From: Candidatus Staskawiczbacteria bacterium RIFCSPHIGHO2_02_FULL_43_16
Lineage (GTDB): Bacteria; Patescibacteriota; Minisyncoccia; Minisyncoccales; Staskawiczbacteraceae
Assembly: GCA_001821935.1 (NCBI GenBank)
Contig: MHOU01000010.1
Coordinates: forward strand, 45,157 to 93,778
Length of the DNA stretch: 48,622 bases
Reading direction: 5' to 3'
Part shown: positions 3,489 to 48,622 of the stretch, piece by piece
Layout: each line of letters starts with the position of its first letter
How positions within the stretch are numbered: the stretch's first letter is position 1
Position numbers and translations under genes: made by a program
Notes under the pieces: model-generated
What the model saw: only the letters and a program-made list of their open reading frames with translations
What the model was told of the DNA's origin: nothing
The model's database searches: none

Positions 3489-4742
3489 ATGTTGCAATCC
3501 AAACTTTTCTACAAAACAACTAAAAATAAAACTGCGGGGACTGAATCGGTTTCCCATGACCTTTTGGTGCGCGCCGGATATGTAGACCAGCTCATGGCGG
3601 GGGTGTACAGTTTCTTACCCCTGGGTTTTATGGTGCTAAAAAACATTGAAGCAATTATTAGAAAAAATATGGAAGAGATTGGCGGGCAAGAAATGTTAAT
3701 GCCAGTATTGCACCCAAAAGAAATTTGGCAAAAAACCGGCCGATGGGACGCTTTGAATGATATTTTATTTAAAATCAAAGGTAATGCTGATAAGGAGTAT
3801 GTGTTGGCTTCTACACATGAAGAATCTATGGTTCCATCCGCAAAAAAGATTATTTTTTCTTATCGCGATTTGCCTTTTTATCCATTTCATATCCAGCTAA
3901 AGTTTAGAGATGAATTACGGGTGAAATCAGGAATTTTGCGAACCAAAGAATTTATCATGAAGGATTTATATTCTTTTCATGTGAATCAAGCCGATTTGGA
4001 TAAGTATTATGAAGTTGCTGCAAAAGCTTATGAAAAAATATTCAAAGAAGCAGGGGTTGGAAAAATAACATACAGAACATTGGCAAGTGGTGGTAGTTTT
4101 TCCAAGTATTCAGACGAATTCCAAATGGTAACGGATATTGGCGAAGACTTAATTTATATTTGTAAAAAATGCGGTATTGCCATTAATAAAGAAATCAAGG
4201 CGGAAAATCCCGTTTGTCCAAAATGCCAGGGTGGCGAATTTGAAGAAAAGAAAGCGGTTGAAGTGGGAAATATTTTTAAACTTGGAACAAAATTCTCAAC
4301 ACCGTTTGACTTGAAGTTCACCGATAAAGATGGCCATGACAAACCTGTTTTGATGGGGTGTTATGGTATTGGCCTTGGCAGGTTGATGGGAGCCATTGTG
4401 GAAGCCAGTCATGACGACAAGGGAATTATTTGGCCTGCGGCTGTGGCGCCGTTTGCAGTTCATTTGATTCATTTGGGAGCTGACAAAAAAACCAAAACAT
4501 CAGCTCAAAAACTTTACAAGAGTTTACAGGAAAATAATATTAAAGTATTATGGGACGATAGGGAAAACAAGACCGCGGGGGAAAAATTCGGCGAAAGCGA
4601 TTTACTGGGAATTCCTTATAGGATTGTCATTTCAGAAAGAACTCTGGCCACAAATTCTGTGGAGATAAAAGAGCGCGGGAAGGAAAAGGCAAAATTGGTA
4701 AAGCTTAAAGATACCATAAAAAATGTTCGGCAACATCAGTAA
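3489..4742 (+). CDS. proS: Prolyl-tRNA synthetase, short form without the editing insertion
   Basis: N-terminal LLVRAGYV motif and class II aaRS core. 417 aa. Confidence 0.85.
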   Translation: MLQSKLFYKTTKNKTAGTESVSHDLLVRAGYVDQLMAGVYSFLPLGFMVLKNIEAIIRKNMEEIGGQEMLMPVLHPKEIWQKTGRWDALNDILFKIKGNADKEYVLASTHEESMVPSAKKIIFSYRDLPFYPFHIQLKFRDELRVKSGILRTKEFIMKDLYSFHVNQADLDKYYEVAAKAYEKIFKEAGVGKITYRTLASGGSFSKYSDEFQMVTDIGEDLIYICKKCGIAINKEIKAENPVCPKCQGGEFEEKKAVEVGNIFKLGTKFSTPFDLKFTDKDGHDKPVLMGCYGIGLGRLMGAIVEASHDDKGIIWPAAVAPFAVHLIHLGADKKTKTSAQKLYKSLQENNIKVLWDDRENKTAGEKFGESDLLGIPYRIVISERTLATNSVEIKERGKEKAKLVKLKDTIKNVRQHQ

Positions 4743-5793
4743 ATTATTTTCATTTTTGTCTTTAGACATGGCCATTGACTTAGGTACGGCCAACTCTTTG
4801 GTGTACGTTAAAGACCGGGGCATTATTATCAACGAACCTTCGGTTGTTGCGGTAAATAATAAAACCGGGCAGATTTTGGCTATCGGGGAAGAAGCCAAAA
4901 AAATGGTGGGCAGAACCCCTTCTTATATAACCGCCACCCGGCCTTTGGTAAATGGGGTGATTTCAGATTTTGAAGTAACCGAGCAAATGCTTAAATATTT
5001 TATTGAAAAGGCGGTGGCTGGTTCTAAAAAATGGTGGGGGTTTGGCTATTCGCCAAGGGTTATTATTGGCATTCCCTGCGGCGTAACCGAAGTGGAAAGA
5101 AAGGCCGTAAGAGACGCGGCCAAAAACGCTGGTGCCAGGACGGTTTTTTTGATTGAGGAGCCTTTGGCTTCTGCCATTGGCGCGAAGTTGCCCATCCAAG
5201 AACCGGGTGGAAATTTTATTGTTGATATTGGCGGGGGAACTACCGAAGTGGCTGTGATTTCTTTAGGGGGGATTGTGGCATTTCGGAGCTTGCGTGTTGC
5301 CGGTGATAAATTAAATGATGATATTATTCAGTTTGCCCAAAAAGAATATAAGCTGTTGATTGGTGAGCGTACGGCGGAATTCATTAAAATAAACATTGGC
5401 AGTGCCATGGCCATGAAAGAAAAAAAGGAAATGCCCATGCGCGGGCGGAATTTAGTGACGGGGCTTCCCGAAGAAGTGGTGATTTTTAACGATGACATTC
5501 AGCGGGCCTTGGAACGTTCAGTCAAACAAATTGTAGCAGCCATTAAAACGACCATTGAAGAAACCCCACCGGAACTTTTGAGCGATGTGATGACCAACGG
5601 TATTTTTTTGGCTGGCGGCGGAAGTTTACTGCGCGGCCTTGATGCATTGATTGCTCGGGAGACAAAGATGCCATGCAGGATCATTGATGATCCGTTGACT
5701 TCTGTGGTACGTGGCTGTGGCATTGCCTTGGAAAATATTGAAACTTTAGAAACGTTGGTGCAAAAGGATGAAGAATGGGGGGCACCGGTGTAG
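4723..5793 (+). CDS. mreB: Rod-shape determining protein MreB, full length
   Basis: MFGNISKLFSFLSLDMAIDLGTANSLVYV matches the MreB N-terminus. DIGGGTTEVAVISLGG is the actin phosphate-2 loop. Confidence 0.9.
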   Translation: MFGNISKLFSFLSLDMAIDLGTANSLVYVKDRGIIINEPSVVAVNNKTGQILAIGEEAKKMVGRTPSYITATRPLVNGVISDFEVTEQMLKYFIEKAVAGSKKWWGFGYSPRVIIGIPCGVTEVERKAVRDAAKNAGARTVFLIEEPLASAIGAKLPIQEPGGNFIVDIGGGTTEVAVISLGGIVAFRSLRVAGDKLNDDIIQFAQKEYKLLIGERTAEFIKINIGSAMAMKEKKEMPMRGRNLVTGLPEEVVIFNDDIQRALERSVKQIVAAIKTTIEETPPELLSDVMTNGIFLAGGGSLLRGLDALIARETKMPCRIIDDPLTSVVRGCGIALENIETLETLVQKDEEWGAPV

Positions 5794-6477: not shown

Positions 6478-6768
6478 ATGATAAGTAAAGAAGAGGTGCA
6501 ACATATTGCAAAATTAGCGAGATTGGAATTGACTGAACAGGAAACCGAAAAAATGCAGAAAGACATGTCTGCGATTTTGGATTATTTTGATGTACTGAAA
6601 AAAGCACCCAAAATAAAATCTAGTCCCGTGGTTCGGACTACAGGACTAAAAGAAAACGCGACCAGGAAAGATTTGGTGGTGGAAAGGCCGGCCAGTTTGG
6701 CCAACAATTTGGTTGGCGCCGCACCGGACAGAAAAGATGATTATATTAAGGTGAAATCAATTTTGTAA
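6478..6768 (+). CDS. gatC: Glu/Asp-tRNA amidotransferase subunit C
   Basis: 96 aa. EEVQHIAKLARLELTEQETEKM is the GatC signature. It contains the in-frame 28-nt repeat at 6621..6648. Confidence 0.85.
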   Translation: MISKEEVQHIAKLARLELTEQETEKMQKDMSAILDYFDVLKKAPKIKSSPVVRTTGLKENATRKDLVVERPASLANNLVGAAPDRKDDYIKVKSIL

Positions 6769-13507: not shown

Positions 13508-14180
13508 ATTTGAAAAGGTTACCAAAATTTACTTGCCCGAATCCGCCGTTTTGCAAGATGTTTCTTTTGAAGTAAAAAAGGGCGAGTTTGTTTCCATTGT
13601 GGGAAAATCGGGGGCGGGCAAATCCACCTTGATTAAAATGATTTTGGGGTTGGAAGAGCCCACCTACGGCGATGTCTTTTTTAACGGGGAAAACATTCAT
13701 AAAGTCAGCCACAATGAATTGCAGAATATCCGGCGTAAAATCGGCGCGGTTTATCAGGATTACAAGTTGCTGCCCGCCAAAACCGTGTATGAGAACGTAG
13801 CCTATATCATGGAAATTGAAGGCAGGGTAAACGAAGATATTGCTTTGCAGGTTCCCAGGGTACTGGCGGCCATCGGGCTGAAAGAGAAAATGGATAACTT
13901 TCCCGAAGAACTTTCCGGCGGCGAACAGCAGCGCCTGGCCATTGCCCGGGCGTTAGCGGGGCAGCCGGAGGTGATTATTGCGGATGAGCCGACCGGGAAT
14001 TTGGATCCGTATAATTCCCATGAAGTGCTGGCGCTGTTGGAAAAAATAAACCGGTCGGGGAAAACCGTTATCTTGGCCACGCACGATAGGGAAATTGTCA
14101 ACAAATTAGCGCGAAGGGTGATTACCATAGAAGACGGGAGGGTGGTGAGGGACGAAGAAAAAGGAAGATTCATTATTTAG
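13500..14180 (+). CDS. ftsE: Cell division ATP-binding protein FtsE
   Basis: Walker A GKSGAGKST, ABC signature LSGGEQQRLAIARAL, 226 aa, adjacent to ftsX. Confidence 0.9.
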   Translation: MIRFEKVTKIYLPESAVLQDVSFEVKKGEFVSIVGKSGAGKSTLIKMILGLEEPTYGDVFFNGENIHKVSHNELQNIRRKIGAVYQDYKLLPAKTVYENVAYIMEIEGRVNEDIALQVPRVLAAIGLKEKMDNFPEELSGGEQQRLAIARALAGQPEVIIADEPTGNLDPYNSHEVLALLEKINRSGKTVILATHDREIVNKLARRVITIEDGRVVRDEEKGRFII

Positions 14181-14262
14181 GGTCTAGGGGATAGGGTCTA
14201 GGGTCTAGTAAAAACGTAACACGGCGTTACGGCTAAACCCTAACCCCTAGACCCTAAGCCCT
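14178..14262. repeat. Heptamer-array palindrome: (TAGGGTC)-like x4 ... (CTAAACC/CTAACCC/CTAGACC/CTAAGCC)
   Basis: The two arms are roughly reverse-complementary around a loop (aaaaacgtaacacggcgttacgg). Read directly from sequence. Likely a terminator for ftsE or a REP-like element. Confidence 0.6.
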
Positions 14263-14269
14263 CAAAAAA

Positions 14270-15181
14270 ATGGCACATTTTTCAAGGGTATTGGGTTTCG
14301 CTTTTGCGCATTTTTACCGTAACAAAGGCACTTCCGTGGCCGCGATTTTTATTTTAACCATCACCACCCTGCTTATCACCGGGCTGTTTTTTGTGCGCGG
14401 CGCCAGTAATTACGTTATCGCTCAGGTGCAAAACAAAATTGACATTACCGCCTATTTTAAAGCGGACGCGGCCGAAGATGATATTTTGCAGGTGCGCCAG
14501 GAATTGCTGCAAGATGGCGAAGTTGTCAGGGCGGTTGAATATGTTTCCCAAGACCAGGCTTTGGCCGATTTTAACGCAAAGCACCAAGATGATCCCACCT
14601 TTGAACGCGCACTTCAGGAAGTGGGGCAGAATCCCTTTTTGCCTTCACTGAATATTATTACCAATGGGGCGGCGGCTGAATATGAGAATGTTGCCAATGT
14701 GCTGACCCAGGATAAATATGCCGTGCTAATAGAAGAGGTTGATTTTTCTGAAAAAAGGGATACTATTGAAAAGGTCTTTGCCATCACGGGTAGCATCACG
14801 CGGTTTGGGCTGGTGGCCGGGGTATTGCTTTTGCTGATTGCCATTTTAGTGGTTTTTAACACCATCAAACTGATTGTGGAAACTTCCGGGCAGGAAATCA
14901 GCACCATGCGTATTGTGGGGGCTTCAAACTGGTTTATTCGCGCGCCATTTGTTATTCAAGGGGTTATTTTTGGGGCCATTTCGTTTGCCATTTGTTTTGT
15001 GGCAACCGCTTTGATAGCTTATCTTTTAGCTTCGGGGATTTCTGTTATCATGCCTGGATTTAATTTGTTCACATTTTTCCTTTCTAATATTTTGATTATC
15101 ATGGTCATTCAACTGGCCGCCGGCGCGGGCCTGGCAAGTTTGTTAAGTTTTATGGTGGTGAGGAAGTATTTAAAAGTATAA
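14270..15181 (+). CDS. ftsX: Cell division permease-like protein FtsX
   Basis: N-terminal TM helix, extracytoplasmic domain, three C-terminal TM helices, and position after ftsE. Confidence 0.85.
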   Translation: MAHFSRVLGFAFAHFYRNKGTSVAAIFILTITTLLITGLFFVRGASNYVIAQVQNKIDITAYFKADAAEDDILQVRQELLQDGEVVRAVEYVSQDQALADFNAKHQDDPTFERALQEVGQNPFLPSLNIITNGAAAEYENVANVLTQDKYAVLIEEVDFSEKRDTIEKVFAITGSITRFGLVAGVLLLLIAILVVFNTIKLIVETSGQEISTMRIVGASNWFIRAPFVIQGVIFGAISFAICFVATALIAYLLASGISVIMPGFNLFTFFLSNILIIMVIQLAAGAGLASLLSFMVVRKYLKV

Positions 15182-15278
15182 ACCCTAAATACTAAATCCT
15201 AAACTCTAAATAAATTCAAAATCACAAAATTTAAAATCTAAAACACGTTTAGGATTTAGAGTTTAGTGTTTATGGTTT
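15181..15278. repeat. Heptamer-array palindrome: CCTAAAT/ACTAAAT/CCTAAAC/TCTAAAT ... TTTAGGA/TTTAGAG/TTTAGTG/TTTATGG
   Basis: Same family as 46604..46712 (shared CTAAACTCTAAATAAAT and TTTAGGATTTAGAGTTTAGTGTTTA). Arms are mirror heptamer arrays. Confidence 0.6.
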
Positions 15279-15283
15279 AACAT

Positions 15284-15354
15284 TGCGGGATCGTCTAATG
15301 GTAGGACAACAGATTCTGGATCTGTTTATCTAGGTTCGAATCCTAGTCCCGCAG
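15284..15354 (+). tRNA. tRNA-Gln (anticodon CUG) with U1:A72
   Basis: Acceptor stem TGCGGGA/TCCCGCA, D-loop AATGGTA, anticodon loop TTCTGGA, T-arm CTAGG-TTCGAAT-CCTAG. No encoded CCA. Confidence 0.85.
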
Positions 15355-23559: not shown

Positions 23560-23834
23560 CTAGGGCGCCAGTTCATATTATAACTTATGGTAGCGAGTAA
23601 ATTCGGGCAAGATTCAAGGCGCAACGAGGAAACGTATCCTCTGCGATACGTTGACGAAGTTGCAACGATGAAGCTTGCCCGAATTCACTCGCCCAAAGGG
23701 AAACCAAAAAATGGCTGATTTCTTCGTTTTTCCTCGTCGGCGATACACTGCGGTATCGCCTCCTCGGAAGAAACCTTGAAATCATCTCATTTTTTGGCTT
23801 CTACCATAAGTCCTAATATGAACTGGCACCCTAG
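23560..23834. mobile_element. MITE-like structured element, copy 2 (~275 bp; 34-bp TIRs CTAGGGCGCCAGTTCATATTATAACTTATGGTAG)
   Basis: TIRs match with 3-4 mismatches. The core aligns to copy 1 (GGCAAGATTCAAGGCGC, GCAACGATGAAGCTTGCC, CATTTTTTG(A)GCTTCTA). The internal stem shows compensatory changes. Confidence 0.55.
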
Positions 23835-24630: not shown

Positions 24631-24712
24631 GGGGTCTAGCGTCTAGGGTATAGGGTATAGTAAAACGGCGTACGTCGTGACTAGCCCCTAGCCCCTATCC
24701 CCTAAACCCTCA
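24631..24712. repeat. Heptamer-array palindrome: GGGTCTA/GCGTCTA/GGGTATA/GGGTATA ... CTAGCCC/CTAGCCC/CTATCCC/CTAAACC
   Basis: Same architecture as 14178..14262. Lies between the MBL gene and the DUF167 gene. Confidence 0.6.
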
Positions 24713-24715
24713 AGA

Positions 24716-24937
24716 ATGAAGATCATTATCAAAGCCAAGCCGGGTTCAAGAGAAGACAAGATAGAAAAAGTAGATGAAGCTAATTACATTGTTTATGTGA
24801 CGGCTCCGCCCATTGACGGCAAGGCCAACGCGGCTATTATTAAGTTACTGGCGGCGCATTTTGACGTGAGCCAATCGTTGATAGAAATCATTTCCGGCCA
24901 CATGGCGCGGGTGAAAGTAGTAGAAATAAATAACTAA
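24716..24937 (+). CDS. DUF167/YggU family protein
   Basis: 73 aa. KPGSREDKI...VTAPPIDGKANAAIIKLLA...ISGHMARVKVVEI matches the UPF0235 pattern. Confidence 0.6.
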   Translation: MKIIIKAKPGSREDKIEKVDEANYIVYVTAPPIDGKANAAIIKLLAAHFDVSQSLIEIISGHMARVKVVEINN

Positions 24938-30344: not shown

Positions 30345-31571
30345 ATGTCAAAGATAACAGAAATTATTGCGAAAGAAATTAAAGATTCGCGCGGGAAACC
30401 GACCGTAGAGGTGCATTTAACTACCAAAGATGGGACATTTGTGGCTAGTTGCCCTTCAGGGGCTTCAACGGGAATTCATGAGGCTTTGGAATTGCGCGAT
30501 GATGATGGGCGGGGAGTTAGCAAGGCTATTGCCAATGTCAATGAAATTATTGCGCCAAAGTTAATTGGCAAAGACCCCAGCAACCAGAAAGAATTAGATG
30601 AATTGATGTTGGCGCTTGACGGCACGCCTAATAAATCAAAGTTAGGAGCCAATGCAATACTTCCTGTATCGATGGCTGTTTGTAGATCCGGCGCCGCAGC
30701 GAAGAAAATATCGCTCTATCAGCATTTGGCTGATATTGCGGGATTTAAGATTCAAGATTTAGGATTTAAGATGCCTTTGCCAAGCTTTAACATTTTAAAC
30801 GGCGGGGCGCATGCTAAAAATGAATTGGAATTGCAAGAGTTTATGGTGGTGCCCATGAAAAAAACCTTTCAGGAAAATTTGGTGCTGGGAAGCGAAGTGT
30901 TTAATAAATTAACAGAACTGTTAAAACAAACTCCTGCTGGCGTGCCGGAAATGGGTGACGAAGGGGGATATGCTCCGCAAATTGCCACGGCTGAACAGGC
31001 GTTGATGCTGATTAAAAGCGCTATTGGTGACCACAAAGATGTAAAAATTGCACTGGACTGCGCCGCTTCGGAATTTTACCGTGATGGAAAATATGAAGTG
31101 GAAGAAGGAAAAGCCTTGAGCCGCAATGAAATGATTGATTTTTACAAAGATATTGTAGTGCGCTATCCGATTGTTTCTATTGAAGATGCCTTTGCCGAAG
31201 AAGATTGGAATGGATTCCAGGAAATCCGCAAAGCGTTGCCCGAAACCATTATTATTGGTGACGATTTGACGACAACCAATGTGATAAAAATTAAGGAAGC
31301 GGAAAGCAAAAAAGCCTGCAATGGCATTATTATCAAGGTCAACCAAATTGGCACGGTTTCTGAAACCATTGACGCGGTAAAACTGGCGCAAAGCTATGGT
31401 TGGAAAATTATGGTCAGCCACAGAAGCGGAGAAACCATGGACAGCTTTATTGCAGACTTGGCGGTTGGCGTTGGCGCAGACTTTATCAAATCAGGGGCAT
31501 ACACCAAAGACGTGCGCATTGTAAAATATGATAGGCTTTTGGCGATTGAACAGGAGTTAAATAAGAAATAA
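30345..31571 (+). CDS. eno: Enolase
   Basis: 408 aa. Canonical enolase N-terminus and SHRSGETED-type motif (SHRSGETMDS). Confidence 0.95.
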   Translation: MSKITEIIAKEIKDSRGKPTVEVHLTTKDGTFVASCPSGASTGIHEALELRDDDGRGVSKAIANVNEIIAPKLIGKDPSNQKELDELMLALDGTPNKSKLGANAILPVSMAVCRSGAAAKKISLYQHLADIAGFKIQDLGFKMPLPSFNILNGGAHAKNELELQEFMVVPMKKTFQENLVLGSEVFNKLTELLKQTPAGVPEMGDEGGYAPQIATAEQALMLIKSAIGDHKDVKIALDCAASEFYRDGKYEVEEGKALSRNEMIDFYKDIVVRYPIVSIEDAFAEEDWNGFQEIRKALPETIIIGDDLTTTNVIKIKEAESKKACNGIIIKVNQIGTVSETIDAVKLAQSYGWKIMVSHRSGETMDSFIADLAVGVGADFIKSGAYTKDVRIVKYDRLLAIEQELNKK

Positions 31572-31854: not shown

Positions 31855-31973
31855 AGTAGTTTTTCCTTTCAATGAGCGAATGATGGGTAATTTCACTAAC
31901 CATTATATTATATTAAAATTTAATTTTGTCAAATAACCCCAGTCCTGTAGTCCGAACCACAGGACTAAAATAA

Positions 31974-32327
31974 ATGACAGTCTTTCACCTAAATAAACTG
32001 CCAAAAGAAAAACGCATCCAGATGATTGGCGAGTTTTACGATATGGTGGATTCGCTAAAAGACAGAAATGAAGTGCGGTTATTTTTTAAGAGTCTTTTGA
32101 GTGCCGATGAAATAGCTAGTCTTATGAGACGGATAGAAATTGCCATGTTGTTGTCTTCTGGCCAGAAATACGAGGATATTATCAAAACCATGAAAGTGGG
32201 GCGTGATAAAATTTCCAGTGTGCATAAGGCGCTTCTGCAAGATGACAGCGGTTATGCTATAATCGTGGAAAGATTAATTGAAAATCGGAAGAAGTGGGTG
32301 GAAAAAGTGAAAAAGGATAAAAAATAA
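31974..32327 (+). CDS. yerC: TrpR-like YerC/YecD family DNA-binding protein
   Basis: SADEIASLMRRIEIAMLL...ISSVHKALLQDDSGY pattern of the Trp-repressor-related family. Flanked by inverted copies of the 28-nt hairpin repeat. Confidence 0.65.
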   Translation: MTVFHLNKLPKEKRIQMIGEFYDMVDSLKDRNEVRLFFKSLLSADEIASLMRRIEIAMLLSSGQKYEDIIKTMKVGRDKISSVHKALLQDDSGYAIIVERLIENRKKWVEKVKKDKK

Positions 32328-32393
32328 ATGCCAAAGTAACCGTAGTCCCGTGGTTCGGACTACAGGACTAGAATATCATAGTAGAAACTAAGT

Positions 32394-33017
32394 ATGAATT
32401 TAAAAGAAACGTATAATAAAATTTCGGAGGCTTGGCACAAAGATCACTCAAGTGATAATTGGTGGCAAGGTGGCACCGATACATTTGTCTCACTTTTAAA
32501 ACAAGGTGATAGTGTTTTAGATGTTGGCTGTGGCGGTGGTACAAAAAGTAAATATCTTATTGGAAAAGGGTTGAAGGTATTGGGTGTAGATTTTTCAGAA
32601 AATCTTGTTGAAATTGCAAAAAGGGAAGTTCCGCAGGGAAAATTTTTAGTAATGGATGTAGGTAATATTGATACGTTGCCAGAAAGTTTTGACGGGATTT
32701 TTATGCAGGCGGTATTACTGCATATCCCCAAGAAAGAAGCCGAAGGCATTATAAAAAAAGTCGTTCATAAATTACATGTTGGCGGATATTTATACATTGC
32801 CGTTAAAGAGAAGATTGAGGGCGGGGTTGATGAAGAAACAAAAACTGATAATGATTATGGCTATGAGTATGAACGATTTTTCAGCTATTTTACTCTGGAC
32901 GAATTTAAAGAGTATTTTAAAAATACGGGCTTAGAGATGGTGTATGAAAATGTTGAACTGCCAAGCCGGACCGCTCGGAAAAGCAATTGGATGCAGGTGA
33001 TTGGTAAAAAGAAATAA
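32394..33017 (+). CDS. Class I SAM-dependent methyltransferase
   Basis: VLDVGCGGGTKS motif I and downstream motifs. Confidence 0.75.
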   Translation: MNLKETYNKISEAWHKDHSSDNWWQGGTDTFVSLLKQGDSVLDVGCGGGTKSKYLIGKGLKVLGVDFSENLVEIAKREVPQGKFLVMDVGNIDTLPESFDGIFMQAVLLHIPKKEAEGIIKKVVHKLHVGGYLYIAVKEKIEGGVDEETKTDNDYGYEYERFFSYFTLDEFKEYFKNTGLEMVYENVELPSRTARKSNWMQVIGKKK

Positions 33018-35468: not shown

Positions 35469-35660
35469 GGGGGTCGGGGAAATTGGTAAGGGAGCTTTTT
35501 ACGCGACACTTAGTTCTGCTCAGACAGAACCCCGTGAAGGAAAACAGTGCCGTCAATACGCACACGCGTGTGCGTATTGACGGACACGTTAGAAACCGTG
35601 GGTTTCTAAGGAGCGAACCCGAAGGGGGAGCGACAGAGTGGGCTTCTCTTGTCGATTGGC
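35469..35660 (+). ncRNA. Candidate GC-rich structured element; the overlapping 64-aa ORF is probably spurious
   Basis: Starts with GGGGGTCGGGGAAA, as does 8983. Perfect 34-bp palindrome CCGTCAATACGCACACGCGTGTGCGTATTGACGG. Hairpins GTTCTG-ctcaga-CAGAAC and TTAGAAACC-gtg-GGTTTCTAA. Confidence 0.25.
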
Positions 35661-35690
35661 GGAGTTTACGGATTTGATAGCAAAAAAGTT

Positions 35691-35763
35691 ATCCCGATCA
35701 ATTTAGCAAAGCTAAATTGATACGGGATCCCGTATCAAAATTTATACTAAATTTTTATCGGGA
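35691..35763. repeat. Palindromic mini-element, copy 2 (TIR ATCCCGAT...ATCGGGAT), without a nested tRNA
   Basis: Homologous to the arms around tRNA-Ile at 22684..22831, with the same internal palindromes. Confidence 0.6.
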
Positions 35764-36232: not shown

Positions 36233-38665
36233 ATGAAAAATGTTTTGTGGTTTAAAGAGCTAGGCATTAAAGATGTGCCGCAGGTGGGCGGGAAAAATGC
36301 CTCGCTTGGTGAAATGTATAATAATTTGCTAAGTAAGGGAGTTAATTTGGCAAACGGTTTTGCCACCACCTCCCAGGCTTATTTTATTTTTCTGGAAAAA
36401 AGCGGCTTGTCTTTGCAAATCCAGAACATTTTAAAAGATATTAATGTGCATGACCTGGCCGCACTGCAAGAAAAAGGCAAGAAAGTGCGCCAGCTTATTT
36501 TGAGTGTTAATTTGCAGCCCGCCCTTCAAGAAGAAATCATCGCGGCTTACCGCCAGCTGTCGGATATGTACGGGTCAAAAAATACCGATGTGGCAGTAAG
36601 GTCTTCGGCCACTGCCGAAGACCTGCCCGGAGCCAGTTTTGCCGGCCAACAGGAAACGTTTTTAAATGTTACCGGGGAACAAAATGTATTGGAGGCGGTG
36701 AAAAAATGCTTTGCATCTTTGTTCACTGACCGGGCCATTGCTTACCGCCAGGAAATGGGGTTTGGGCATACCAAAGTGGGCTTATCGGCTGGCATCCAAA
36801 AAATGGTGCGCTCCGACGTGGGCGCCAGCGGCGTGATGTTTTCCTGTGACACGGAAAGCGGTTTTGGCGACGTGGTGCTCATTAACGCCAGCTATGGTTT
36901 GGGTGAAAATGTGGTGTTGGGAAGAGTGGAGCCGGACCAATATTACGTGTTTGAGCCTACCCTAAAAACGGGGCACAAACCCATTATCCAAAAAAAAATC
37001 GGGTCAAAGCTTTTGACCATGGTTTACACCAAAGACCCAAAAAACCCGATTAAAAACACCAAAACCTTGCCAAAAAACCAGCAATCATTTGTGTTGGCAG
37101 ATGAAGAAATTTTGCAGCTGGCTAAGTGGTCAATGCTGGTGGAAGCCCACTACCAAAAACCCATGGACATGGAATGGGCCAAAGACGGTATTGACGGCAA
37201 ATTGTATATTGTCCAAGCTAGGCCCGAAACCGTACAAAGCAAACGGAACGTGAATGTGCTAGAAGATTACGTTTTGCAAACACCCAAAACCCAACACCTA
37301 ACACCCATTGCTAGGGGCATGAGTGTCGGGGGAAAAATCGGATCCGGCAAGGCCCATAAAATTTTAAGCCCGAAGGATATTAATAATTTCAAAAAAGGGG
37401 AAGTGCTGGTAACCGGCATGACAGACCCGGACTGGGTGCCGGCCATGAAACTGGCCAGCGCGATTATTACCGACCAGGGCGGTCGCACGGCTCACGCGGC
37501 CATTGTTTCCCGTGAATTGGGAATTCCCTGCATTGTGGGCGCGGGCAATGCCACTAAAACCGTAAAAACCGGCCAGGAAATTACCGTGGATTGTTCCGGC
37601 GGAGAAGAGGGCTTTGCTTACGAAGGCATTATTCCGTTTGAAATAAAAAAAGTAGATATTTCAAAATTAAAAAAGCCCAAAACTAAAATCGCCATGAACT
37701 TGGCAGACCCTTCCCAAGCCTTTAATTTAAGCTTTATTCCCAATGACGGCGTGGGCCTAGCGCGGGAAGAATTTATTATTGCCAACACCATCAAAATTCA
37801 CCCCAACGCCCTGATAGATTACAAAAAATTAAAGCCGGCGCTGCGTAAAAAAATTGACGCGCTGACGCTGGGGTATGAAAATAAGATTGATTTTTACGTT
37901 GATAAATTGGCCGAAGGGGTGGGGAAAATTGGCGCGGCATTTTACCCAAAACAGGTGATAGTGCGATTTTCTGATTTTAAAACCAACGAATACCGTCAGT
38001 TGGTAGGCGGCGAGCTTTACGAAATGCATGAAGAAAATCCCATGATGGGTTTTCGCGGAGCTTCCCGGTATTATCACGAAAGTTTCAAGCAGGCCTTTAT
38101 GTTGGAATGCCAGGCCATTAAAAAAGTGCGGGAGGAATTTGGCATTGATAACGTGCAAGTGATGATTCCCATGTGCCGGACTATTGAAGAGGGCCAGAAG
38201 GTGCTGGAAGTCATGAAGGAAGCCGGTTTGGTGAAAGGTGAGAACCCTTCGACAGGCTCAGGGCAAGTGGCCTTGAAAGTATATGTCATGTGCGAACTTC
38301 CGGCTAACGTGGTTTTAGCAGAACAGTTTTTGGAAATGTTTGACGGCTTTTCCATTGGGTCTAATGATTTAACCCAGTTTACCCTGGGCCTGGACCGCGA
38401 TAATTCGGAAATGTCCGGCGTTGCCAACGAAAAAAATGATGCGGTGAAAGAATTAATTAAAGAGGCGGTGCGGGTTTGTAAAAAAATGGGGAAATATTCG
38501 GGCATTTGCGGAGACGCGCCTTCCACATTCCTTGAATTTACCAAATTTTTGGTAGACCAGGGCATTGAATCAATTTCTTTGTCATCAGACGCCATTATTA
38601 AAACTACGATGGCGGTACTTGAGTATGAAAAGGAAAAATCCGCAAATACAATTAATAGGACGTAG
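36233..38665 (+). CDS. ppsA: Phosphoenolpyruvate synthase (pyruvate, water dikinase)
   Basis: 810 aa. N-terminal ATP-grasp, central phospho-His domain, C-terminal PEP-utilising domain. In-frame PSTGSGQVA insert relative to E. coli ...GENG-LKIIMMCE.... Confidence 0.9.
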   Translation: MKNVLWFKELGIKDVPQVGGKNASLGEMYNNLLSKGVNLANGFATTSQAYFIFLEKSGLSLQIQNILKDINVHDLAALQEKGKKVRQLILSVNLQPALQEEIIAAYRQLSDMYGSKNTDVAVRSSATAEDLPGASFAGQQETFLNVTGEQNVLEAVKKCFASLFTDRAIAYRQEMGFGHTKVGLSAGIQKMVRSDVGASGVMFSCDTESGFGDVVLINASYGLGENVVLGRVEPDQYYVFEPTLKTGHKPIIQKKIGSKLLTMVYTKDPKNPIKNTKTLPKNQQSFVLADEEILQLAKWSMLVEAHYQKPMDMEWAKDGIDGKLYIVQARPETVQSKRNVNVLEDYVLQTPKTQHLTPIARGMSVGGKIGSGKAHKILSPKDINNFKKGEVLVTGMTDPDWVPAMKLASAIITDQGGRTAHAAIVSRELGIPCIVGAGNATKTVKTGQEITVDCSGGEEGFAYEGIIPFEIKKVDISKLKKPKTKIAMNLADPSQAFNLSFIPNDGVGLAREEFIIANTIKIHPNALIDYKKLKPALRKKIDALTLGYENKIDFYVDKLAEGVGKIGAAFYPKQVIVRFSDFKTNEYRQLVGGELYEMHEENPMMGFRGASRYYHESFKQAFMLECQAIKKVREEFGIDNVQVMIPMCRTIEEGQKVLEVMKEAGLVKGENPSTGSGQVALKVYVMCELPANVVLAEQFLEMFDGFSIGSNDLTQFTLGLDRDNSEMSGVANEKNDAVKELIKEAVRVCKKMGKYSGICGDAPSTFLEFTKFLVDQGIESISLSSDAIIKTTMAVLEYEKEKSANTINRT

Positions 38666-38723
38666 GATTGGTTAGTCACACATCATCTCCACACCCATGC
38701 ACCAACGCATGGGTGTAAGAAAT

Positions 38724-39155
38724 ATGCCAACATTCCACCTAAATAGTTTACCAAAAGAAAAGAGAATTCAAATGATTGGCGAGTTTTATGATACGGTTGA
38801 TTCACTGAAAGACAGGCAAGAGGTTCGCTCATTTTTCAAATCATTGCTAGCCGCCGATGAAATTGCTGCGCTCATGAGGAGGATTGAAGTGGCAATGCTT
38901 CTATCTGCTGAATATAGCTACGATAAAATCAAGAAAATGTTGGGGGTGGGGAATAATAAAATTTCTAGTGTGCATAAAGCGTTGCTTCAAGACGATAGTG
39001 GATATGCTATGATTGTTAAAAGATTGATTGAGGACAGGAAAAATAGGTTAATAAAAATAAAAAAAGAAGGGAAGGGTACAATAGACGAAAAAGAATTAGA
39101 AAGGGAGGCGCTACTATTTACTCCGTCGTCTGCGGCGGTCAGGAGAAAGAAATAG
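38724..39155 (+). CDS. TrpR-like YerC/YecD family protein, second paralogue
   Basis: About 70% identical over ~110 aa to the protein at 31974..32327, with a C-terminal extension. Confidence 0.65.
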   Translation: MPTFHLNSLPKEKRIQMIGEFYDTVDSLKDRQEVRSFFKSLLAADEIAALMRRIEVAMLLSAEYSYDKIKKMLGVGNNKISSVHKALLQDDSGYAMIVKRLIEDRKNRLIKIKKEGKGTIDEKELEREALLFTPSSAAVRRKK

Positions 39156-39209
39156 TAATTATGGCACACTTATGCATTGGTGCGTGGGTACACTCAATTA
39201 AATAAAAGC

Positions 39210-44721: not shown

Positions 44722-44767
44722 TAAAAAAATGAGCCGTTTCGCTTTTGCGAAACGGCTCATTTTTTTA
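44722..44767. terminator. Bidirectional intrinsic terminator directly after the prfA stop
   Basis: AAAAAAATGAGCCGTTTCGC-tttt-GCGAAACGGCTCATTTTTTT. Confidence 0.7.
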
Positions 44768-45562
44768 CTAGACCCTAGACCCTTCTTTTTTCTGCTCTTC
44801 CTCGAATTTCTTAAAGGCTTTGAAAATGGGCTCCATTTTGCCCTCTACAATATCTTCCAAATTATGCCAGGATTTTTCTATCCTATGATCGGTAATTCTA
44901 TTTTGCGGGTAATTATAGGTTCGGGTTTTTTCAGAACGCTTGGCCCAGCCAATTTGCTCCCGGCGCGCTTGGGTTAATTTTGATGAATCGGCTTCTTGCT
45001 GGGCTTTCAAAAGGCGCGCGCCCAAAAGCCCCATGGCATTTTCTTTATTTTGCAGCTGGCTTCGTTCTGTTTGACTGGTCACCACAAGACCGCTGGGGAT
45101 ATGGGTGATTCTAATGGCAGATTCAGTTTTATTTACGTGTTGGCCGCCAGCGCCTGAAGAGCGGTAAGTGTCTATTTTAAGATCAGAAGGATTTATGGTA
45201 ATGTCCATTTTGGTGGGTTTTTCTAAAACGGCAATGGTTACCGTTGAAGTGTGTACACGCCCTTGTTTTTCGGTGGCTGGAATACGCTGAACCCGGTGCA
45301 CCCCGCTTTCATATTGCATGGCTTCAAATGCGCCCGAGCCGGAAAGTTCAAACACGATTTCTTTATAACCCCCCACATCTGAAGTGTTGGAATCGATGAC
45401 TTTATTGCCCCACCCTTGGCTAGTGGCATATTTTGAATACATCCGGTATAAATCACGCACAAAAAGCCCAGCTTCGTCTCCACCGGTCCCCGCGCGAATT
45501 TCAATAATCACGGATTGCTTTCCGCCCCCACCCGTTTGTTGTTGATATTCTTGATAATCCAT
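44768..45562 (-). CDS. prfA: Peptide chain release factor 1 lacking N-terminal domain 1
   Basis: PAT tripeptide (QRIPATEKQGR), GGQ (SSGAGGQHVNKTESAIRITHIPSG), and EIRAGTGGDEAGLF matching E. coli RF1 around residue 107. An in-frame stop lies 5 codons upstream of the ATG, and only 77 bp separate it from rpmE. Confidence 0.8.
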   Translation of the reverse strand: MDYQEYQQQTGGGGKQSVIIEIRAGTGGDEAGLFVRDLYRMYSKYATSQGWGNKVIDSNTSDVGGYKEIVFELSGSGAFEAMQYESGVHRVQRIPATEKQGRVHTSTVTIAVLEKPTKMDITINPSDLKIDTYRSSGAGGQHVNKTESAIRITHIPSGLVVTSQTERSQLQNKENAMGLLGARLLKAQQEADSSKLTQARREQIGWAKRSEKTRTYNYPQNRITDHRIEKSWHNLEDIVEGKMEPIFKAFKKFEEEQKKEGSRV

Positions 45563-45909: not shown

Positions 45910-46610
45910 TGACATCCGAATCTACTAATAACGTAAAACTTAACGCGGATGATATGGCCAAAGCCGGCCTGAATTTTGGTCATACCGTTTCCAAGCTTCA
46001 TCCTAAAATGAAGGCTTTTGTACAGGGCGTTAAAAGCAATGTCCACATGATTGATATGGAAAAGTCCGCCAAAGAATTTGATTTGGCTTTGAAATTTATT
46101 TCCCAATTAGTTGCCGAAGGAAAAACATTGCTGTTTGTGGGAACAAAAATACAGGCAAAAAATTTAACCAAAGTAGCGGCGGTGGAAAGCGGTATGCCAT
46201 ATGTTACCGAACGGTGGCTGGGTGGAGCCTTTACTAATTTTGAAACCATTTCAAAACGGGTGGCTCACTTGAAAGACTTGGAAAGCAAAAAAGCCAAAGG
46301 TGAATTTGAGAAATATACCAAATATGAACAGATGATGCTTAATGAAGAAATCGCTTCGCTGACCACGAAATTTGAAGGCATCAAAAATATGGCAAAGTTG
46401 CCGGAAGCCGTTTTAATTTTAGATTTAAAAAAAGACATTGCCGTAGCGCGTGAAGCAAAACGCAAGGGTATTAAAATTGTGGGCATTGTAGACACCAATA
46501 TTGACCCGGCTCTGGCCGATTACGCCATTTATGCCAATGATGACGCCGTTTCTTCTATTGGATACGTGCTGGAAAAAATCAAAGAAACTATATTAAGTGC
46601 GAAACCCTAA
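45909..46610 (+). CDS. rpsB: 30S ribosomal protein S2
   Basis: GHTVSKLHPKMKAFV...LFVGTK. Confidence 0.9.
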   Translation: MTSESTNNVKLNADDMAKAGLNFGHTVSKLHPKMKAFVQGVKSNVHMIDMEKSAKEFDLALKFISQLVAEGKTLLFVGTKIQAKNLTKVAAVESGMPYVTERWLGGAFTNFETISKRVAHLKDLESKKAKGEFEKYTKYEQMMLNEEIASLTTKFEGIKNMAKLPEAVLILDLKKDIAVAREAKRKGIKIVGIVDTNIDPALADYAIYANDDAVSSIGYVLEKIKETILSAKP

Positions 46611-46712
46611 ATCCGAAACCCTAAACTCTAAATAAATAAAAAATTCAAAATAAAAAACGTTTTGAGTTTAAATATTTGAGTTTATTTAGGATTTAGAGTT
46701 TAGTGTTTAGAA
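46604..46712. repeat. Heptamer-array palindrome of the 15181 family: AACCCTAAA/TCCGAAACCCTAAA/CTCTAAA ... TTTAGGATTTAGAGTTTAGTGTTTAG
   Basis: Shares the right arm and CTAAACTCTAAATAAAT with 15181..15278. Lies between rpsB and tsf. Confidence 0.6.
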
Positions 46713-46715
46713 TTT

Positions 46716-47165
46716 ATGATTAATATCGAAGATATTAAGAGATTGAGAGATGAAACCGGTGCCTCGCCGGTGAAAATTAAAAAGGCCATGGAAGAGTCTG
46801 GGGAAGATGTTCAAAAAGCCAAGGAATTGTTGAAAAGCTGGGGAGCGGTAAAAGCCGGTGAAAAAGGAGGGCGCGAAACCCATGACGGTGTGATTGATTT
46901 TTATATCCATCCTAATGCCAAGTCCGGCGTACTACTGGATATCCGTTGTGAAACTGATTTTGTGGCAAAAAACCCCGATTTTAAAAGCCTGGCTCACGAA
47001 ATTTGCCTGCACATTGCCGCCATGCAGCCTGAAAATGTTGAAGCCTTGCTGGCGCAATCCTGGGTAAAAGACGATGCCAAAACCATTAAAAGTTTGATTG
47101 AAGAAACAGTAGCTAAAATAGGGGAGAATATTACTGTGAAACAGTTTGCACGCTTTGCGATATAA
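46716..47165 (+). CDS. tsf: Elongation factor Ts, short form
   Basis: 149 aa. IKRLRDETGASPVKIKKAMEESGEDVQKAKELL N-terminal UBA-like domain. Confidence 0.85.
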   Translation: MINIEDIKRLRDETGASPVKIKKAMEESGEDVQKAKELLKSWGAVKAGEKGGRETHDGVIDFYIHPNAKSGVLLDIRCETDFVAKNPDFKSLAHEICLHIAAMQPENVEALLAQSWVKDDAKTIKSLIEETVAKIGENITVKQFARFAI

Positions 47166-48157: not shown

Positions 48158-48622
48158 TATTTGAGAGTTTGATCCTAGCTCAGGGTGAACGCTGGAAATG
48201 TGGATACCGGCATGCAAGTCAAGGGGCCCAGGGATGTAGACTCTGAACGCGAATCTAAATTGAGAAGCGAAAAAATGTGATAATTTCAATGTTTCTTGCG
48301 ACGAAATGTAGTGACTACTACATTGAGGAGTAAAAACGAAGAAATTAGCCATTTTTTCGCTTCCCTTCGGGCTTTCATATTTTGATTATCTTCTGCGTCT
48401 TCGGAGCTTAACGATGCCTACAGCATCGCTTCGCTCCTCAGTTCTTGAATATAATCAAAATATGGAAGCTCAATTGATTCTGTTCAGAGTCTACATCCTT
48501 AAGGCACCGGCGAACGGCTTAGTAACACGTGGATACATACCGCAAAGTGGAGCACAGCTCGTCGAAAGACGGGGTAATTCTCCATAATCCCGCAAGGGTA
48601 AACACGCAAGTGGCTTTGTGAA
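48158..48622 (+). rRNA. rrs: 16S rRNA, 5' portion (runs off the window end), with a ~230-nt insertion in helix 6 (48252..48480)
   Basis: GAGAGTTTGATCCTAGCTCAGGGTGAACGCTGG...CATGCAAGTC...GGCGAACGGCTTAGTAACACGTGG match conserved 16S 5' blocks. The extended helix GGGATGTAGACTCTGAACG/TGTTCAGAGTCTACATCC encloses the inserted sequence. Confidence 0.9.

Follow-up and report, generated by a model that had tools for sequence, protein, structure and literature searches.

Among the closest described relatives of the system reported here are the TrpR-family repressors and their operators. YerC of B. subtilis, which is HisR, binds 20-bp palindromes when histidine is present and is autoregulated in about half of the genomes, and the half-sites of TrpR follow the pattern GNACT with 8-bp spacing (PMC9413887). 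The present work deals with a palindromic element of 28 bp, and with the YerC-like regulator genes that it accompanies, in a stretch of 48,622 nucleotides from Candidatus Staskawiczbacteria bacterium RIFCSPHIGHO2_02_FULL_43_16 (GCA_001821935.1, contig MHOU01000010.1, positions 45,157 to 93,778), the whole of which is called the window hereafter. Copies of the element stand before one of these regulator genes, past its stop codon and, in frame, inside gatC. On balance we lean towards reading the 28-mer as the cognate operator of the YerC-type regulator, duplicated into coding loops, with copy-paste keeping the copies uniform. We interpret the wider palindrome family to which it belongs as candidate DNA-binding sites of YerC/HisR-like regulators of the TrpR family in Parcubacteria/Staskawiczbacteria. 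Neither these elements nor YerC-type regulons of Patescibacteria were described in the literature searched.

The element resembles the HisR and TrpR systems in the protein family involved (TIGR02531/PF01371), in a palindromic site with a centre of ~6 bp placed before the regulator's own gene, in GNACT-type pentamers 8 bp apart and in a lineage-specific consensus that changes with the protein. A palindrome standing before the gene of its own regulator would imply autoregulation. The differences are nonetheless considerable, as the element measures 26-28 bp instead of 20 bp, is unrelated in sequence and has its pentamers oppositely oriented. It reads AGTCC-N8-GGACT, which is neither the TrpR arrangement GNACT-N8-AGTNC nor that of HisR (cacTTTA-N6-TAAAgtg), to which it shows no similarity. 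No his or trp genes lie near the element's yerC, and the hosts are not expected to make amino acids; the yerC paralogues have private sites and a second inverted site past the gene; and in-frame copies in unrelated coding sequences have not been reported for HisR or TrpR.

Three further systems share parts of this design. Rickettsia palindromic elements (RPE; PMC10969869) are likewise palindromes that lie in frame in housekeeping genes unrelated to one another, in a bacterium with a small genome; they lengthen the protein by a short peptide where this is tolerated and have no known transposase. However, RPE are ~100-150 bp long, occur in tens of copies and have no cognate DNA-binding gene, whereas the present element is 28 bp long (9 aa), occurs in 1-4 copies, is anchored to a regulator, is near-identical across species and flips in place. 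Of the features that define RPE and miniature inverted-repeat transposable elements (MITE), in-frame insertion in unrelated genes was found, but not the length of ~100-150 bp, terminal inverted repeats, target-site duplication or many copies. Repetitive extragenic palindromes (REP/REPIN) with their associated tyrosine transposases (RAYT) are also short and imperfect, and there too two copies of the repeat, inverted relative to each other, enclose a gene that is present once, with other copies dispersed. Unlike in those systems, the enclosed gene here codes for a helix-turn-helix regulator instead of an HUH/Y1 (IS200/IS605-like) transposase, and the copies are far fewer (tens to hundreds, extragenic, for REP), many of them intragenic, with one copy at the gene in most genomes; neither a transposase gene nor a REP-like extragenic copy number was found for the element. 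Palindromic amphipathic repeat coding elements (PARCELs; PMC2996958) resemble it as dyad-symmetric coding DNA of which both strands encode similar peptides (here SPVVRTTGL either way), but they are made of 25-residue units repeated in tandem, in surface proteins of unknown function, whereas the present element forms single 9-residue units in enzymes and the same unit is also found in non-coding DNA. By its size, copy number and lack of a transposase the element falls outside RPE, REP/RAYT and PARCELs, and its membership among HisR/TrpR operators is putative.

The element of the window, designated type 1, is a near-perfect palindrome of the form Y-AGTCCYGTGGTTCGGACTACRGGACT-R, with Y and R as flanking bases in all ~40 non-duplicate copies. 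Numbering refers to the 26-nt core and is counted from its first A. On one strand, core pairs 9-18 and 12-15 form G.T wobbles, to which A.C mismatches correspond on the opposite strand; the asymmetry of the centre is retained in nearly all copies, and positions 6 and 21 vary (T/A, C/A, T/G or C/G). The pentamers AGTCC-N8-GGACT are accompanied by a repetition of GGACT 8 bp apart. Five of the six reading frames are stop-free, and one frame encodes SPVVRTTG(L) in both orientations because all asymmetries fall on third codon positions. The predicted RNA fold of the unit amounts to -12 to -17 kcal/mol.

In the window the 28-mer TAGTCCCGTGGTTCGGACTACAGGACTA is present exactly at 6621-6648 and 32343-32370, both on the plus strand, and the minus-strand copy at 31940-31967 differs from it at 2 of 28 nt, or at 1 of the 27 nt of 31941-31967 (Table 1). 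An earlier note, made from the sequence alone, had described the 28/28 identity between 6621 and 32343, the in-frame SSPVVRTTGL in gatC, a third copy inverted at 31941 with one mismatch and a yerC-like gene bracketed by the inverted pair; all of this was confirmed, the single mismatch for 31941-31967 and the bracketing by an open reading frame (31974-32327) that lies between the copies at 31940 and 32343. No match to the 28-mer arose in 100 dinucleotide-preserving shuffles of the window and the element recurs in many independent assemblies, by which chance or an assembly artefact was ruled out as its source. The 32343-32370 copy, separated by 23 nt from the ATG at 32394 of the methyltransferase gene that follows, was found in all four independent assemblies of the source species. 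No copy was covered by a match to Rfam covariance models, whether gathering thresholds or a limit of E = 5 was applied, or by an ARAGORN hit; an origin from a known RNA or a tRNA fragment was thereby rejected.

Table 1. Palindromes, regulator genes and adjoining features. Positions are those of the window unless another locus is named.
Feature	Position	Strand	Remarks
gatC	6478..6768	+	Pfam GatC E = 2.5e-11; element in hypervariable linker, residues ~48-58
Type-1 palindrome in gatC	6621..6648	+	In frame, SSPVVRTTGL; C6/A21 variant; 28/28 identical to 32343 copy
Promoter-like site TTGACA-16-TAATAT	31905..31932	-	10/12 consensus matches only; reads away from yerC-1; adjoins palindrome
Type-1 palindrome 5' of yerC-1	31940..31967	-	T6/A21, perfect outer stem; ends 6 nt before yerC-1 ATG
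yerC-1	31974..32327	+	117-aa YerC/HisR-like TrpR-family helix-turn-helix protein; recognition helix starts GRDKISSV
Type-1 palindrome 3' of yerC-1	32343..32370	+	Starts 15 nt past yerC-1 stop; inverted relative to upstream copy
Type-2 palindrome CACACCCATGC-ACCAAC-GCATGGGTGTA	38690..38717	+	Ends 6 nt before yerC-2 ATG; fold -18.2 kcal/mol; type 2 also in L033
yerC-2	38724..39155	+	YerC-like paralogue; recognition helix starts GNNKISSV
Degenerate inverted type-2 copy	39166..39191	-	Directly past yerC-2 stop; all differences from upstream copy are transitions
Type-1b palindrome	L068		Upstream and downstream of yerC gene
Type-3 palindrome ACTCCTATGC-TCCGAC-GCGTAGGAGT	L066		Upstream and downstream of yerC gene
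Type-4 palindrome	L067		At yerC gene
Type-3-like palindrome, enolase loop	L004 2306-2331		Read as HSYASESRS
Type-3-like palindrome, enolase loop	L016 1479-1504		Read as RSYPPTRRS
Type-3-like palindrome, enolase loop	L066 12881-12906		Read as HSCAPTHRS

The survey beyond the window consisted of one scan of representative genomes, among which the source species is not included, and one of metagenomes, both for the 26-nt core. In these two scans the core was confined to Patescibacteria, namely metagenome-assembled genomes of Staskawiczbacteria and other Parcubacteria; viral contigs scanned for the element gave no match, and a phage origin was rejected on that ground. Counting the genomic copies, as the earlier note had in view, yields 1-4 exact copies in each representative genome (a single one in a contig of 738 kb), a dispersed family of coding and non-coding copies of which about half are intragenic.

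Copies of class A precede a yerC-like gene. In at least 12 non-duplicate contexts the type-1 element is followed, after 8-10 nt (once 18 nt), by the ATG of a yerC-like gene whose product starts with MTTFHLN. Its orientation is that of yerC in four cases and the opposite in eight, which suggests a strand-symmetric role at the level of double-stranded DNA. The place 8-10 nt upstream of yerC is the sole location constant in every genome, and most type-1 genomes have the upstream yerC copy only. The regulator's own regulatory region thus holds a palindrome that is conserved across species, the 26-nt core being invariant except at positions 6/21, with flanks that diverge and a yerC coding sequence that falls to ~75% amino-acid identity.

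The protein encoded next to the element is a helix-turn-helix member of the TrpR/YerC family. YerC-1 matches Pfam Trp_repressor PF01371 (E = 1.7e-12), NCBIfam TIGR02531 YerC/YecD (50.4 bits, cutoff 42.2) and, among solved structures, PDB 3G1C, 3FRW and 3KOR (E = 1e-8 to 1e-7); the start of its paralogue yerC-2 was set at the ATG at 38724 by alignment with yerC-1. The palindrome at 31940-31967 begins 8 nt from the -35 box of the divergent promoter-like site, and a weaker plus-strand promoter-like site at 31892-31919 (consensus match) would place it in the yerC-1 leader. In all related contigs examined the genes lie in a glycolysis-rich synteny (trxB, eno, yerC, gpmA, grx, gap, ppdk, yerC2, pfkB, fba), and the arrangement and orientation of yerC are identical in the four assemblies of the source species. 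Because of this conserved synteny, yerC appears from the sequences compared to be a chromosomal gene and not a mobilised cassette, which the inverted pair had led the earlier note to consider; the upstream copy that most type-1 genomes have alone speaks against such a cassette as well. YerC-1 of the source species has 117 aa as against ~172 aa in most orthologues, and is without their C-terminal tail of ~55 residues, in which the motif EALLFTPS is conserved. The downstream palindrome occupies the position of this missing tail, and the sister species L068 is likewise shortened and has a downstream copy.

Other yerC subfamilies are accompanied by different palindromes of the same design (26-28 bp, with arms of 10-12 bp and a centre of 4-6 bp) in the same place, often with a second inverted copy past the stop codon. 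In its first two residues the recognition helix has RD in type 1, NN or SN in type 2, ND in type 3 and RN in type 4, such that the palindrome sequence shifts with the DNA-reading residues of the protein, in a sample that is small and partly confounded by phylogeny. A subfamily-specific palindrome that covaries with the recognition helix would behave as a cognate binding site does. Across 17 variants, 8 of the 11 arm pairs have changed on both sides and 94.7% of cells are paired, as compared to 24-46% in a control in which the pairing was slid by 1-3 columns. An in-frame palindrome in the PPDK gene (36599-36624) was considered as a further member of the family and rejected, as it encodes the conserved VRSSATAEDLP motif, also present in an orthologue.

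Copies of class B lie in frame in housekeeping genes, at variable loops. The gene names were taken from conserved motifs in the translations, with enolase alone being checked, by alignment to the Pfam-supported enolase of the window. The hosts are gatC in the window, the ATP synthase gamma gene atpG (five loci, one common site), pth and an rluA-like gene (two loci each, with a common site and opposite orientations), trmD (two different sites), enolase (two sites across species, type-1 and type-3-like), genes read by eye as tsaD-, lysS- and murF-like, and the gene of a large protein without assigned function. Relative to transcription the two orientations are about evenly represented (about 7 vs 6). 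Only hydrophilic open frames are used, stop-containing and hydrophobic frames being absent from real genes, and a motif at the protein level was rejected, as the same DNA is read in different frames as SPVVRTTGL, QSRGSDYRT or QSCSPNHRT. At positions 6/21, 11 of 14 yerC-side copies are perfect and the C.A mismatch dominates in coding copies (13 of 17 imperfect; Fisher p ~0.004 for copies that are non-independent). The window gatC copy and the copy downstream of yerC are both of the C6/A21 variant, which agrees with the one having served as template for the other.

The net gain in length at the element is ~0-4 aa in GatC, 4 aa in enolase, ~6 and 8 aa in TrmD and ~6 aa in Pth. From the net gains in enolase, TrmD and Pth it therefore follows that the element is an insertion with partial replacement or later trimming. 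Orthologues of gatC, pth, the rluA-like gene and enolase carry it in opposite orientations at one and the same site, which would need four coordinated changes and is therefore ascribed to a copy-paste or flip event. Judged by these comparisons, the near-identity of the copies points to copying or homogenisation and not to convergence.

The gatC copy can be followed in most detail. Among the 120 closest GatC homologues, 11-12 contain the element-derived peptide, all but one of them within the 18 closest, and the remainder have unrelated sequence of similar length in the hypervariable linker; the element-bearing proteins are 94-96 aa long (one 101) and the others 92-96 aa. Coding DNA was compared for seven element-bearing orthologues, P0003, P0007 and P0011 being judged from their peptides, and all seven have the element at the identical site. 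GatC orthologues with the same nucleotides exist, on contigs too short to reveal any intergenic copies. The centre of the element is canonical in the window gatC and reversed in P0005, P0008 and P0010, and P0018 is an intermediate; these orientation flips show that whole-unit or centre-only copy/flip events occur. The elements of P0005, P0008 and P0010 are mutually 26/26 identical in genes that are otherwise 69-78% identical (chance ~1e-4 to 1e-3), and that of P0006 is altered complementarily on both arms (AGTCCTATGG...CCATAGGACT). The variant peptide SPMVKTIGL likewise corresponds to changes on both arms, as would SPIVRTIGL and SSVVRTTEL, for which this was deduced from codon-to-pair geometry. 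The coding copy in gatC is thus not free to drift: it is under selection as DNA, or else other copies overwrite it time and again. In a neighbour-joining tree of 75 residues, the resolution of which is too poor to tell repeated gain from repeated loss, the element-bearing GatCs are scattered into ~6 groups, and their monophyly was set aside.

Two interpretations put forward in the earlier note stand in part. Its suggestion that the repeat had overwritten native sequence agrees with the hypervariable linker and near-equal lengths of GatC, but not with enolase, TrmD and Pth, which gain residues; its alternative of a REP-like unit or gene conversion is supported as regards a dispersed palindromic family with signs of copying or homogenisation (the 26/26 identity in gatC and the flips), but the definition of REP does not apply.

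Further repeats were observed around gatC. The element-free orthologue P0012 (L060 165-455) has a GC-rich linker segment in which CGCAGAC occurs three times and which encodes IRADRHADSRRQ; short repeat insertions of more than one kind thus seem to be accommodated in the GatC linker. In L058 (1173-1198) a type-2/3-like palindrome, ACACCTACGC-ACCGAT-GCGTAGGTGT, lies between genes ~300 nt upstream of a gatC with a type-1b-like in-frame copy. The window also has MreB-like paralogues ~5 kb apart (29-697 and 4723-5793), with DNA stretches 74-84% identical, and in related contigs an MreB gene stands immediately 5' of gatC.

Two other proteins, enolase and Pth, show palindromes recurring at one loop. 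At a single enolase loop a type-3-like palindrome is found in frame in three species (Table 1), with compensated arms and one flipped centre; the enolase gene of L016 has an extra type-1 copy at a second loop, and that of the window (30345-31571) has neither palindrome. For Pth, an unbiased set of 120 orthologues (P0241-P0360) was surveyed, with the palindromes inferred from peptides and not from DNA. The loop after RIGI has 10 residues in 67 of the 120 and 14-19 residues in ~20, and the longer loops contain peptides derived from type 1 (in both orientations), type 1b, type 3 or a further class, at one site; one class, Q[YF]RGLVHGT, would fit AGTACCGTGG...ACACGGTACT by back-translation. As far as these peptides indicate, this surface loop is a hotspot for palindrome-derived peptides.

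Taken as an operator, the palindrome would be bound by a YerC dimer, or by two dimers that sit on the AGTCC/GGACT pentamers at an offset of 8 bp, and this binding would repress yerC itself and perhaps also the divergent promoter. The second copy past the yerC stop could serve DNA looping or the control of the next gene. The gatC copy would have arisen through copying of the operator into the hypervariable GatC linker, where it would be tolerated because of the five stop-free frames and the common peptide of both orientations, and the copies might be kept uniform by short-tract gene conversion or by template switching within the palindrome. Copies inside genes would be either working binding sites, for instance intragenic roadblocks, or tolerated passengers.

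Several points weigh against this reading. The link between protein and palindrome draws on position, conservation and a covariation among only 4-5 types that in part reflects shared ancestry. The E. coli trp operator has the reverse of the arrangement AGTNC-N8-GNACT, and the resemblance to TrpR sites is only a lead. Simple symmetric dimer binding leaves the conserved asymmetry of the centre unexplained, and the operator model does the same for the copying of a 28-bp site into distant coding loops. Template switching in a quasi-palindrome could produce compensated arm changes even in the absence of selection. The coding copies, mostly C.A-mismatched, may be weaker sites or a separate sub-lineage, and some gatC copies have decayed, that of P0004 in part.

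A further proposal, which we advance tentatively and regard as doubtful, is that in these tiny genomes, densely packed with genes, YerC-like regulators control central genes through private-type operators lying in frame inside the target coding sequences. The targets would then comprise glycolysis, ATP synthase, gatCAB, pth, trmD and lysS, with the sites acting as roadblocks or looping anchors, and the intragenic sites would co-evolve with the regulator, hence the types 1, 1b, 3 or others in one loop across lineages. If so, protein loops would be shaped by a regulatory code at the DNA level rather than by protein function.

The foremost alternative, which we judge unlikely, is that of a selfish miniature palindromic element, similar to a short RPE or REP, that spreads by some trans-acting mechanism and persists only where it does no harm, between genes or in frame in surface loops, with the front of yerC as a favoured or ancestral landing site and no binding by YerC. 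In-frame copies in many unrelated housekeeping genes, restricted to hydrophilic open frames, would be expected of it, as would the patchy distribution among close GatC relatives, the orientation flips, which amount to copy-paste behaviour, and the decayed gatC copies. The sister species also fit it, as the gatC site is empty (L069) while yerC is flanked by an inverted pair of a variant palindrome (L068). Yet neither a transposase nor a target-site duplication nor a parent element was found, the Y...R flanks belonging to the palindrome itself; the ~1-4 exact copies per genome and the lack of matches in viral contigs are likewise at odds with it. The constant site 8-10 nt upstream of yerC in every genome, and the occupation of that site in different yerC subfamilies by different palindromes that covary with the recognition helix, also count against it, and the hosting of different types by the same protein loops according to lineage fits the tracking of a cognate factor better than random insertion.

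Quite improbable, in our estimate, is an RNA hairpin that masks Shine-Dalgarno-like bases (AGGA/AGGAG) or forms an RNase target in the yerC leader and governs mRNA stability or translation within genes. The arms covary, the predicted energies (-12 to -18 kcal/mol, z-scores -2.7 to -5.7) are favourable, the wobble positions are G.U on one strand, and AGGA (type 1) or AGGAG (type 3) lies in the 3' arm ~9-10 nt before the ATG. However, orientation is unbiased both at yerC (4 vs 8) and in coding copies (~7 vs 6), half the transcripts having A.C instead of G.U, and a strand-specific hairpin function was rejected for the lack of such bias. The type-1b palindrome stands 19-21 nt from the ATG, the type-4 arm has no Shine-Dalgarno-like bases, no Rfam family matches, and the covariation with the recognition helix of a helix-turn-helix protein would be left unexplained.

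Sites for chromosome organisation or loading of a helix-turn-helix protein, comparable to parS and distinct from transcriptional operators, are very unlikely. In resemblance to parS/ParB, the present element has few copies per genome, many intragenic and strongly conserved as DNA, with one adjoining the gene of the presumed binding protein. Against this, one genome holds at least two paralogues with different sites, the protein has the small repressor fold of TrpR/HisR type, and the sites are insertions acquired by the genes, not coding sequence conserved from ancient times.

Least credible of all is a core site of a site-specific recombinase (11-6-11, dif/lox-like) with yerC as an invertible or mobilisable cassette, as the design of 11-bp arms around an asymmetric 6-bp centre, which matches that of tyrosine-recombinase core sites, and the inverted pairs flanking yerC in the window, L068 and L066 are outweighed by a yerC orientation and neighbourhood constant in all species examined, with neither both orientations nor an adjacent recombinase gene in the four source-species assemblies and related species, by the single copy at yerC in most type-1 genomes, and by the deletion or inversion of essential regions that recombination between dispersed copies would cause.

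To our knowledge, almost nothing is known of regulation in Patescibacteria (Candidate Phyla Radiation, CPR), and the group is not yet genetically manipulable. The sequence-defined pairing of a small regulator family with private palindromes, together with the catalogue of extra sites, would make a first regulon of the group directly testable. Regardless of function, a signal at the DNA level is clearly imposed on protein, as a palindrome sets nine residues in GatC, Pth, AtpG, enolase and others while keeping its symmetry, flipping in place and being homogenised from locus to locus. This bears on the interpretation of insertions in CPR proteins, on potential artefacts that palindrome-derived peptides may cause in alignments and phylogenies, and on the spread of short palindromes without a transposase.

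The window contains other repeats besides. Intergenic inverted repeats of CCCTAA/TTAGGG-like units form long hairpins between genes at five places (14169-14269, 15168-15284, 24671-24720, 44762-44783 and 46601-46721; for example TTAGGGTCTAGGGGATAGGGTCTAG paired with CTAAACCCTAACCCCTAGACCCTAA) and look like a separate dispersed repeat or terminator family. An unusually GC-rich non-coding stretch past the gene gap (35470-35700), for which no Rfam family reaches threshold, contains a perfect 34-nt palindrome at 35550-35583, CCGTCAATACGCAC-ACGCGT-GTGCGTATTGACGG, and may be an undescribed structured RNA or another candidate binding site. A repeat of ~80 nt lies near tRNA-Ile at 22956-23034 and 23662-23740, and a 48-nt inverted copy of it, 88% complementary, falls at 48325-48372 in the 5' portion of the gene for 16S rRNA. 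The latter gene scores no more than 87 bits over 466 nt, and by this low score the rRNA may contain an insertion or intron-like sequence.

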